Assembly (NCBI RefSeq): GCF_056712565.1
Contig: NZ_CM160072.1
DNA: 64,000 nt
Reading direction: 5' to 3' (one strand)
This document shows, piece after piece, positions 12,001 through 15,000 of the stretch (positions are counted from its first letter, which is position 1; each line of letters opens with the position of its first letter). Position numbers: made by a program.

Positions 12001-15000
12001 GGCTGTCGTCTCTCTTCTGCCATTGTCCTGTAACTTCCGGACTTCAGCCCGCTCCTTATTTTACTCACAATATTATCCCGGCCGGGAGGATTCATGGCAT
12101 TTAAACACTATGACGTGGTCAGGGCGGTATCGCCGTCAGACCTTGCGAAACGACTGACACAAAAACTGAAGGAGGGCTGGCAGCCGTTTGGTAGTCCGGT
12201 GGCCATAACCCCTTATACCCTGATGCAGGCGATTGCAGCAGAAGGTGATGTGGTGGTCAGTGGTGCAACTGAGCCGGATTGGTACTACGTCATCGTACTG
12301 GCCCGGCATTCCAGGCCATAAAAGACAGTCTGGCAGTGGGACTAAATGCACTGACGCTGATGGATATTACCAAAAATGTAACGTATGGCGTTGAGATAGA
12401 AAGTCTGGCGCTGGAGATAAATGCACCGGCATCATCATAAAAAGTGAGCCAGTCAAATGGAAGGTATCGTTAAACTCACCGGTAGTGTCAGTGGGTCGTC
12501 TGAGACGCTTGCATGAGTTATCAGAGCCATCAGTAGTTAACTGGTGGCTTTTTTATTGTTTTCAGCTTCCGGATAACGGGAGACGGGGTATGGACCAGAT
12601 GGAAAAAATCACAACAGGTGTGTCATACACCACGTCAGCGGTGGGAACGGGCTACTGGTTCCTGCAGTTGCTGGACAGGGTTTCCCCGTCTCAGTGGGCG
12701 GCAATAGGCGTGCTGGGGAGTCTGCTGTTTGGGCTGCTGACATATCTGACTAACCTGTATTTCAAAATCAGAGAGGACCGTCGTAAGGCGGCACGGGGAG
12801 AGTAATTCAATGACTCAAAACTATGAACTGATTGTGAAAGGGATCCGCAATTTTGAGAATAAAGTTACGGTAACTTTAGCATTACAGGACAAAGAACGCT
12901 TTGACGGTGAAATTTTTGACCTGGACATCTCGCTGGACCGTGTTGAAGGTGCTGCGCTGGAGTTTTATGAGGCAGCGGCCAGAAGGAGCATCAGACAGGT
13001 CTTCCTGGATGTCGCTGCCGGGTTATGTGAAGGGGATGAGCAGTCGCCGGAAAAGCGCCCCGTAATTTTAGAGGCGCAGAATGTATGGATAACCTACAAA
13101 GGAAAGCTACCGGGAAGGATTACTGGTTCCCTGAAGACTCCGCCGAAATGGTAGTTTTGCCAGCATAATTTTCTTCCAGCAATGCCGCCAGCCACTTGAA
13201 AGAATTTTGTTGTTCCTGGGACCATTTGGGGTTGCGTGATTCAAAATGAATGGATGCCAGCGTTGGCAGCATTTGCTCCCTGGGAATTGATAAGGCCAGA
13301 TGTGAAAATGCAACAGTGAGGGCATTTACATCATCCCGAAGCCTGGAAATGCAGTCGAGCAACTCCTGTAGAGAAATGGTGCTATTGTCCATAAATAATC
13401 CTCTTGATTGTCTTTACCTTTTCCCCGCCTGATTCAACAGGCCGGGACAGATAAACATATCCAGGGTTCAGAAACCGATAAATCCTGATAAATATCCATG
13501 AACGCAAAAATCAAATACGGCCTGTCAGCTGCAGTTCTGGCGCTGATTGGAGCAGGCGCATCAGCTCCTCAGATACTTGACCAGTTTCTGGATGAAAAAG
13601 AGGGTAACCACACTACGGCATACCGCGATGGTTCCGGCAACTGGACCATCTGTCGGGGGGGCCACGATGGTGGATGGAAAACCCGTTTTTCCCGGTATGA
13701 AACTGTCGAAGGAAAAATGCGACCAGGTCAACGCCATTGAGCGTGATAAGGCGCTGGCATGGGTGGAGAAAAACATCAAAGTGCCATTGAGCGAACCCCA
13801 GAAAGCGGGGATCGCGTCATTCTGTCCGTACAACATTGGTCCCGGTAAGTGTTTCCCGTCGACGTTTTATAAACGAATTAATGCAGGTGATCGCAGGGGA
13901 GCGTGTGAGGCGATTCGCTGGTGGATTAAGGACGGTGGCAGAGACTGCCGTATTCGTTCAAACAACTGCTACGGTCAGGTATCCCGTCGTGACCAGGAGA
14001 GCGCGCTGGCGTGCTGGGGTATCGACAGATAAGCAGAATATTTTGCTGAAAAATAAGGCATGGCCACGCGGGCGGATAACATGAAATCCTGCGAAGTGGC
14101 GAAACGTAAGTGAATAAAAGTAAAAACCCCGTTTGTTGGCACCAAGCGGGGTTTTGTGTTTCCTGACTCCGGAAAAGTCAAAGGAGAAAGTGTGTTTGAT
14201 TTTAGCAAACTGATTCGGGAGATTCGAGTGATGGCTGAAAAATTATCCACCTGGAAGTTCATTCTTATCTGGCTGGTGTTTGTGATTATGGCCTCTGGTT
14301 ATTTCATCGGTCAGATACGCTGGTGGTGAAATGAACCGCGTACTGTGCGTGGTCATCATTGCCCTGCTGGTGGCCTGTGGTGCGCTTAGTCTGGGGCTGA
14401 ATCATTACCGTGATAACGCCATTACCTACAAAGCCCAGCGCGACAAAAATGTCAGAGAACTGAAGCTGGCGAACGCGGCAATTACTGACATGCAGATGCG
14501 TCAGCGTGATGTTGCTGCGCTCGATGCAAAATACACGAAGGAGTTAGCTGATGCGAAAGCTGAAAATGATGCTCTGCGTGATGATGTTGCCGCTGGTCGT
14601 CGTCGGTTGCACATCAAAGCAGTCTGTCAGTCAGTGCGTGAAGCCACCACCGCCTCCGGCGTGGATAATGCAGCCTCCCCCCGACTGGCAGACACCGCTG
14701 AACGGGATTATTTCACCCTCAGAGCGCGACTGATAATAATGCAAAAACAACTTGAAGGGGCACAGCTATACATTCGAGAGCAATGCCTCAGATAAAAACC
14801 GGCCAAGGATAATCCGCTGAAGATTCGCCGGTGGCTAAAGTGTGCCAAGAGTTCAATTTACGCAATTACTCCTGTCGATGCTATGTACCGTCTTTGTGAA
14901 GTCAATGGATACCTGATTTATTTCTGTGCGCTGTATCGTCGCTGTACTCTTGCATTAATTATGACTGTAGCCTGACGGGGAACTCCTTCTGCACAAGTGT

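Follow-up and report, generated by a model that had tools for sequence, protein, structure and literature searches.

A terminator-linked small membrane protein gene between the endolysin and spanin genes of a lambdoid prophage, with a possible accessory role in lysis

We analyzed a 64,000-nucleotide (nt) stretch of contig NZ_CM160072.1 (NCBI RefSeq assembly GCF_056712565.1), hereafter called the window, which contains a lambdoid prophage region. Between the endolysin gene rrrQ and the i-spanin gene Rz of this prophage lies a small gene of the family phrog_6632, preceded by a terminator-like hairpin and a short leader. An earlier note on this DNA, made from the sequence alone, had pointed to a small hydrophobic open reading frame (ORF) at this place. 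Here we describe the gene and its flanking signals, trace them in other phages and prophages and consider what the encoded protein may do.

Results

The features of the small gene and its immediate surroundings are as follows.

14123..14155, + strand: terminator-like hairpin with a 13-bp stem and a 7-nt loop, found by a terminator scan
14159..14187, + strand: small stem-loop in which UUUCCU pairs with AGGAGA, the Shine-Dalgarno (SD) sequence of the first start (GGAG, 14183-14186)
14192..14329, + strand: small gene, long form (45 amino acids), with a GTG start and a TGA stop; RefSeq WP_000459345.1; phrog_6632
14217..14233, + strand: internal ribosome-binding site, with GGGAG at 14217-14221, a 9-nt spacer and ATG at 14231-14233 (Met14)
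14231..14329, + strand: probable short form (32 amino acids, essentially the transmembrane [TM] helix alone), with natural short-only genes elsewhere
14322..14333, + strand: junction with Rz, where the Trp-Trp-stop codons spell GGTGGTGA, which is SD-like for the Rz ATG at 14331

The small gene and its junction with Rz

The 45-residue form starts at a GTG codon at 14192, five bases after GGAG, and stops at the TGA at 14327-14329; an in-frame ATG at 14231-14233 is its codon 14. A further in-frame GTG at 14156, which would give 57 residues, lies within the U-tract of the hairpin and is not kept as a start. The earlier note had placed the ORF at about 14233-14330, with the ATG as the primary start, an upstream GTG as the alternative and an end exactly where Rz begins. 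The 32-residue sequence that it gave is encoded on the + strand, both starts are present and the two genes do adjoin; however, the ATG is at 14231, the stop ends at 14329, one base separates it from the Rz ATG at 14331, and the conserved ORF is the 45-residue GTG form, in which the ATG probably serves as a second start. The same note had called the ORF unannotated, which is correct for 42 of the 53 phage records that carry the gene, since these have no feature there, but not for the source genome, in which RefSeq annotates the 45-residue coding sequence exactly, as the hypothetical protein WP_000459345.1. The record of phage CP-1639 names the same coding sequence "putative bacteriophage protein." Positions 14030-14340 (311 bases) are 100% identical to the chromosome of Escherichia coli ATCC 11775.

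The protein matched phrog_6632 over its full length (E value of 1.2e-29, residues 1-45 on profile positions 1-45), and 10 of 10 distant homologues tested matched the family too; this family is annotated as having an unknown function. Profile searches assigned the 45-residue protein and its homologues to no Pfam, NCBIfam or PADLOC family: Pfam gave no match at an E value of ≤0.1, and PHROG gave, beyond phrog_6632, one marginal family of unknown function. A full-text literature search with the accessions and the PHROG identifier found no paper, and a search for small TM ORFs between endolysin and spanin genes returned general lysis papers only. In databases, the gene appears solely as a hypothetical protein, and we found no description of a terminator-linked portable unit or of a probable dual start.

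The junction with Rz has the form stop-N-ATG, and the same junction is found in Salmonella and in E. fergusonii, even though the E. fergusonii spanin belongs to a different family. In many loci the gap from the stop to the next start is 1 to 4 nt. The C-terminal motif I[RK]WW is common to many members in unrelated contexts, and its codons UGGUGG, together with the stop, also form an SD sequence for whichever gene comes next, which would explain why the insertion leaves Rz coupled.

Conservation, selection and distribution

Since 83 ORFs of at least 20 codons lie within 4.5 kb, an ORF of this size is by itself uninformative. Homologues were sought by word-based and exhaustive profile searches and then by genome and phage searches. 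The profile search gave 41 cluster representatives at an E value of ≤1e-3. Homologues are 42 to 54 residues long, and all those with 67 to 98% identity have 45 residues. The closest come from E. coli, E. albertii, E. fergusonii (82% identity) and Salmonella (67%); further hosts are Citrobacter, Edwardsiella, Pantoea, Serratia, Providencia, Vibrio and Rodentibacter. The gene is also carried by the isolated phages H-19B, SPN3UB, FSL SP-016, SEN34, TL-2011c and Rac-SA53 and by two Pseudomonas phages, including YMC11/02/R656. Among the related loci that were fetched, the gene was intact in all 92 copies, and the full region is present in approximately 870 of 5,426 complete E. coli genomes. The earlier note had proposed conservation in related prophages as a check, and these counts answer it in the affirmative.

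When the copies from the window, Salmonella and E. fergusonii were compared, third codon positions held most of the substitutions, and the ratio of nonsynonymous to synonymous divergence (dN/dS) was 0.09 to 0.17 at a dS of approximately 1.0 to 1.4; in the same comparison, the other two + frames gave values of 0.67 to 9. By these comparisons, 14192-14329 is a genuine phage gene of family phrog_6632 under purifying selection. A minus-strand ORF of 95 amino acids (13975-14262), annotated in CP-1639, was considered and rejected: the substitutions fit the + strand codon pattern instead.

The Qin prophage of E. coli K-12 lacks the insert: there, rrrQ overlaps rzpQ, with nothing between them. Published small-protein screens in K-12 are therefore uninformative about this gene.

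The hairpin, the leader and the absence of a promoter

The hairpin (folding z score of -3.3) is flanked by an A-tract at approximately 14116-14122 and a U-tract at 14152-14165 and thus could act in either direction. An equivalent hairpin precedes the start codon by approximately 36 to 45 nt in all homologous loci inspected, a range that extends from E. coli to Vibrio, Rodentibacter and a Pseudomonas phage, and an alignment of 17 loci contains compensatory double changes in 6 of the 11 consensus stem pairs. Stems that pair with the SD sequence, like the small stem-loop at 14159..14187, were predicted in most homologues.

Putative sigma-70-like sites within 250 nt upstream were not enriched (2 found, compared with 2.2 expected from shuffles of 15 loci), and the interval from the hairpin to the start is too short to hold a promoter. 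An Rfam search of this locus and four distant loci gave nothing significant; the best matches, to the rimP leader (E value of 0.32) and IS128 (E value of 0.56), were far below the gathering scores. Because the K-12 Qin lysozyme and spanin genes overlap without an insert, we regard the unit as an insertion. As judged from these alignments, the hairpin, the short leader and the ORF are a portable unit without its own promoter, inserted on the sense strand of late operons and most commonly at the endolysin/i-spanin junction. Neither the conserved upstream terminator nor the portability of the unit figured in the earlier note.

The prophage small RNAs AgvB, AsxR and Pas were considered as candidates for this position and rejected; their positions are upstream of the holin gene, not at this locus. 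The noncoding stretch 14033-14122, directly 3' of the endolysin stop, is common to approximately 2,000 complete E. coli genomes, many of which lack the small ORF; it has no Rfam match, and the matches of ORF-lacking genomes stop at query position 132 or 159. At another locus (L098), a unit of approximately 370 nt is duplicated (3100-3470 and 3790-4160). It starts with the strongly promoter-like TTTACA-17-TATCAT and ends in the family hairpin; one copy precedes a family member, the other precedes an unrelated 58-residue ORF, and toxin-antitoxin genes lie between them. The sequence of this unit suggests a late promoter joined to a terminator, as in lambda pR'-tR'.

Two probable translational starts

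An alignment of 21 members shows near invariance only at E10, R12, M14 and F23, with Met14 invariant in at least 90% of the members. In essentially all members, GGAG or GAGG lies 6 to 10 nt before the Met14 codon, with an energy of -6 to -8.4 kcal/mol to the anti-SD sequence, compared with a background mean of -3.3 kcal/mol within these ORFs. This internal SD sequence is kept despite changes in the residues encoded: most members have R-E (CGG GAG or AGG GAG), Rodentibacter has K-G-V (AAG GGA G), Vibrio has L-E (TTG GAG) and SEN34 has M-E (ATG GAG). Short-only genes also exist. One lies in Serratia (L106), directly after a baseplate spike gene; in Vibrio salinus (L107), a 48-residue long form (3817-3963) is followed in tandem by a 32-residue short-only copy (4010-4108) that retains GGGAG upstream of its ATG.

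Across seven enteric copies, the synonymous divergence (pS) of codons 2 to 13 is 0.26 versus 0.78 for codons 15 to 45, as would be expected if the first stretch doubles as a ribosome-binding region; the ratio of nonsynonymous to synonymous divergence (pN/pS) of codons 2 to 13 is only 0.5. The SD sequence of the first start has an energy of -8.2 to -9.0 kcal/mol in most enteric members and -5.4 kcal/mol in Edwardsiella; in Rodentibacter it is poor (-2.2 kcal/mol), and the internal SD sequence is strong. The N-terminal motif SK[LI][IV][RK]E[LIV]R is also present in distant members, where other codons encode it, that for R12 being CGA, AGA, CGG or CGC, which argues that the N-terminal extension is constrained as protein too. 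Overall, the sequence data favor two products, of 45 and 32 amino acids, from GTG 14192 and ATG 14231.

Predicted protein

AlphaFold, supplied with the family alignment, predicted helices at residues 3 to 17 and 20 to 43, with a break between them and a mean confidence score (pLDDT) of approximately 80; position 19 is Pro in most members. The N-terminal helix is strongly amphipathic (hydrophobic moment of 0.63 to 0.69), and the net charge up to K22 is +2. Residues 24 to 42 have a Kyte-Doolittle mean of 2.1, and this value agrees with the second AlphaFold helix in supporting the single TM helix that the earlier note had predicted. Aromatic belts (W21, F23 and W27; Y37, W44 and W45) and a small-xxx-small face (S35/G36...G40), which is a common helix-packing motif, lie on the TM helix, and the protein ends in RWW, the three residues after it. 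The predicted architecture is a cationic amphipathic N-terminal helix followed by one C-terminal TM helix. By the positive-inside rule, the topology would be tail anchored, with the N terminus in the cytoplasm and only approximately three residues outside.

Genomic settings of the unit

The unit occupies the endolysin/i-spanin junction in the window and in Shiga toxin (Stx) phages, in Salmonella P22-like prophages and SPN3UB, in E. fergusonii, in two Citrobacter species, in Edwardsiella and in Providencia; in Rodentibacter mrazii it follows the endolysin gene, with no spanin gene detected after it. The endolysins upstream fall into the families GH24-SAR (signal-anchor-release [SAR]), GH19, phrog_873, phrog_315, phrog_465 and phrog_1259-like, and the downstream spanins belong to phrog_13/PF03245, DUF2514 and phrog_1026. 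In every resolved case the unit has the same orientation as the late genes, on their sense strand. Genes for Q-like antiterminators are present in SPN3UB and SEN34. The SEN34 genes from holin to tail form one co-oriented block downstream of Q; the endolysin gene abuts the spanin gene, and the unit lies elsewhere, in the baseplate part of this late operon.

The lysis cassette of the window

The neighboring lysis genes in the window are the following.

12590..12805, + strand: phage 21-type class II holin (pinholin); PF04971, E value of 9e-33; RefSeq
12810-13154: DUF1327/YdfR protein, between the holin and endolysin genes
13498..14032, + strand: SAR-type GH24 endolysin rrrQ, frameshifted; a pseudogene labeled "frameshifted" in RefSeq, with intact homologues known
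14331..14795, + strand: Rz i-spanin; PF03245, E value of 1.4e-52; phrog_13
14551..14733, + strand: Rz1 o-spanin lipoprotein (60 amino acids), inside Rz in the +1 frame; PF06085, E value of 5.4e-20; phrog_3198

The frameshift in rrrQ is one extra G in the G-run at 13655-13661, which has seven G residues where the intact homologues need six. Rz1 is absent from the RefSeq features at the ATCC 11775 locus and is annotated in other strains. On the minus strand, an ORF of 90 amino acids (13120-13392; phrog_2411; WP_001351274.1; annotated with unknown function) is located between the DUF1327 and endolysin genes, sharing 35 nt with the 3' end of the former.

Discussion

In this work, we have described a phage gene that comes with its own upstream hairpin and short leader and that probably yields two membrane proteins. 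The explanation that accounts best for the findings as a whole is that of a late-expressed, two-start, accessory membrane protein that tunes lysis, and we put it forward tentatively. We place much more confidence in the anatomy than in the functional part, an accessory inner-membrane modulator of the lysis programme, which we consider somewhat short of probable.

We postulate that the gene would be silent in the lysogen and would be transcribed only when Q-modified RNA polymerase passes the hairpin in late lytic growth. Both termination at the hairpin and Q-dependent read-through are assumptions of this scheme, in which the hairpin would also block stray transcription in the lysogen. Translation would then begin at GTG 14192, with its SD sequence partly masked by the stem, and at ATG 14231, with an SD sequence of its own, giving the 45-residue form and a 32-residue form without the amphipathic helix. 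Both forms would enter the inner membrane with the N terminus in and the C terminus out. Ribosomes that end at the TGA at 14327-14329 would pass to the Rz start by means of the GGUGGUGA of the Trp-Trp-stop codons, so that the spanin stays coupled. In the last and weakest step of the scheme, the accessory protein would tune the membrane step of lysis, and the two isoforms may be an effector and an inhibitor, like holin/antiholin pairs. The upstream terminator, the absence of a promoter and the late sense-strand position suggest a product that is needed late and would be harmful if made early. The earlier note had raised an influence on lysis as a possibility; what suggests it in the sequence data is only the repeated placement of the unit between endolysin and spanin genes of unrelated families, and this apparently independent recurrence with unrelated partners on both sides is the reason why we look to lysis.

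Several observations weigh against this interpretation. In Pantoea, Serratia, SEN34 and Rac-SA53, the unit lies at a baseplate V/W junction, flanked by spike and wedge genes; it is also found among tail genes in Rodentibacter genomosp. 1 and a Pseudomonas phage and, in L098 and L099, next to toxin-antitoxin genes that lie upstream of terminase. Given such members outside lysis cassettes, the position of the unit does not demand a role in lysis. The unit has no consistent partner family among holins, endolysins or spanins, and Pfam and PHROG searches gave no match to a holin, antiholin, releasin or spanin family. In the window itself, rrrQ is a pseudogene, and because the endolysin gene is frameshifted, the lysis cassette of this prophage is probably defective. 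The masking of the first SD sequence is statistically weak, since 7 to 88% of shuffled sequences occlude it too, and the pairing is suggestive only. Finally, Met14 lies on the hydrophobic face of the modeled amphipathic helix and could be conserved for structure, not as a start.

How much of the frame is translated bears on the two-product reading. It is unlikely that only the 32-residue ORF from ATG 14231 is translated, with the 39 nt upstream serving as an untranslated leader that holds the ribosome-binding site. The synonymous conservation and pN/pS value of codons 2 to 13, the short-only genes of Serratia and Vibrio and the weak first but strong internal SD sequence of Rodentibacter are what such an arrangement would give; however, the frame is open from a start with a strong SD sequence in most enteric members, the N-terminal motif is held with varied codons in distant members, and both RefSeq and several phage annotators choose the 45-residue form. 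It is very unlikely that the ORF is mainly cis acting, carrying ribosomes past the inserted terminator to the downstream start while its peptide has no function: the strong purifying selection on amino acids and the amphipathic and TM architecture kept over long distances speak against it, as does the lack of a coupled downstream gene in L098, L101 and L109 (where the gap is 55 nt), even though the stop close to the next start and the last codons forming its SD sequence would suit such a role. The earlier note had allowed that the ORF might be due to chance, which conservation and purifying selection exclude; taken more broadly, a chance ORF or an unexpressed remnant of a degraded gene is extremely improbable, for the very short length, the lack of annotation in most phage records and the frameshift in the prophage endolysin are outweighed by the conservation, the dN/dS values and the intact copies.

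The main rival reading is a different kind of function, which we consider rather improbable. The gene could be a membrane-targeting moron that is unrelated to lysis timing, for example, one for superinfection exclusion, a host-shutoff peptide or a type I-like toxin, with the endolysin-spanin junction acting as a permissive site. Its occurrence at several late-operon junctions, also beside type II toxin-antitoxin genes, and the lack of a fixed holin, endolysin or spanin partner family are consistent with this idea, and the upstream terminator, partly masked SD sequence and GTG start are an insulation typical of toxic small membrane peptides. Moreover, other one-helix small ORFs fill the same slot in other prophages. 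However, with no promoter of its own, the gene would lack the prophage expression seen for classic exclusion genes and type I toxins; minus-strand promoter-like sites are at nonhomologous positions and about as frequent as expected (4 versus 3.3 in 15 loci), and there is no match to a defense-system family. At least nine lineages share the endolysin-spanin junction, with at least six endolysin families upstream, and permissiveness alone is hard to credit for such a pattern.

Comparison with known systems brings out both likenesses and differences. Lambda S105/S107 and phage 21 S68/S71, the latter representing the type to which the window's own holin belongs, are small late inner-membrane proteins of lysis cassettes, as the small gene product would be, and its two putative in-frame starts would likewise differ by a basic N-terminal extension. 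Unlike it, they have two or three TM helices rather than one, and their starts are 1 to 3 codons apart rather than 13. Holins have at least one TM domain and a cytoplasmic C-terminal tail that is highly charged and usually basic; the product has one predicted TM helix but no charged C-terminal tail, its charge being N terminal. The RNA stem near the first SD sequence of the small gene is reminiscent of the sdi stem of lambda.

The Mu gp25 releasin (DUF2730) is a 99-residue N-out/C-in protein with an N-terminal TM helix and a 73-residue acidic cytoplasmic domain; it is distinct from holins and occurs alongside SAR as well as soluble endolysins (PMC9239132). As a gene for a small single-pass membrane protein near an endolysin gene it resembles the gene described here, but we rejected a releasin because the 45-residue protein has a C-terminal TM helix, the opposite layout, and no match to PF10805 (DUF2730). 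A spanin was likewise rejected: at most approximately 3 to 5 residues would be periplasmic, there is no lipobox, and the true Rz and Rz1 genes follow at 14331 and 14551. Phage P1 LydC and LydD, accessory holin-like proteins that modulate lysis according to host and conditions (PMC9025707), provide a precedent for phages with additional small membrane proteins, whether encoded within the main lysis operon or elsewhere; they differ in having two TM helices, LydD has 84 residues and a basic C terminus, and neither is related in sequence to the small gene.

Classic lambdoid morons, as summarized from Juhala et al. (2000) in PMC4104026, bring an upstream promoter of their own, are followed by a terminator and are expressed in the prophage state. 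The small gene is moron-like in separating two genes that are direct neighbors in related phages, as rrrQ and rzpQ are in K-12 Qin; in contrast, its terminator is upstream, and it has no detectable promoter. Type I toxins (Hok, Ldr and TisB) are similar in being one-helix peptides of approximately 30 to 50 residues with a structured leader that partly masks the SD sequence and a prophage location, but their charged segment is C terminal, whereas that of the small gene product is N terminal. A type I toxin-antitoxin system was not supported, since the minus-strand promoter-like site at 14314-14285 is not conserved and there is no promoter of its own and no Rfam match. PADLOC gave no match at an E value of ≤1 for the protein, for three of its homologues or for three further ORFs that occupy this slot elsewhere.

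Cassettes of holin, endolysin and Rz/Rz1 genes are among the best-studied phage gene sets, yet approximately 16% of complete E. coli genomes, as well as many Stx1 and Stx2 phages, carry this gene inside such a cassette. If the accessory protein does affect lysis timing, it would matter both for burst size and for Shiga toxin release, since the toxin exits the cell at lysis. The unit can also be seen as a compact natural plug-in late gene, which brings its own terminator insulation, probably two products and a rebuilt ribosome-binding site for the gene downstream. Inducible phages that carry it are H-19B, SPN3UB and SEN34.

Other small ORFs in the same slot

In other E. coli prophages, the same post-endolysin sequence, hairpin and leader are followed by different one-helix small ORFs before Rz. 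These include a 37/50-residue ORF in O157:H7 (WP_000675931.1), ORFs of 60 and 49 residues in AVS0790 and four small ORFs in strain 4/4. The one-helix ORFs lie at the following positions of three such loci.

L014, 3184-3336, one-helix small ORF
L015, 3160-3488, one-helix small ORFs
L016, 3081-3644, one-helix small ORFs

Two of these occupants have a basic N-terminal extension of 12 to 13 codons, followed by GAGG and an internal ATG, and their C termini resemble variant phrog_6632 C termini (LYGLAKLVIALK compared with LYGVARLIEVVK). Such resemblance hints at a broader mosaic group of dual-start peptides. A bolder generalization, which we regard as doubtful, is that there may be a class of portable, terminator-insulated modifiers of the lysis clock, one-helix peptides in two isoforms (effector and inhibitor) that would fit any Q-antiterminated late operon and tune lysis timing or the spanin/membrane step whatever the holin, endolysin or spanin family; the L014, L015 and L016 peptides would then belong to a wider, hitherto unrecognized superfamily of phage lysis regulators, one with members in Shiga toxin phages.

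An unrelated one-helix ORF also directly follows a family member in Rodentibacter (L112, 4128-4301; 57 residues) and in a Pseudomonas phage (L114, 3174-3290; 38 residues).

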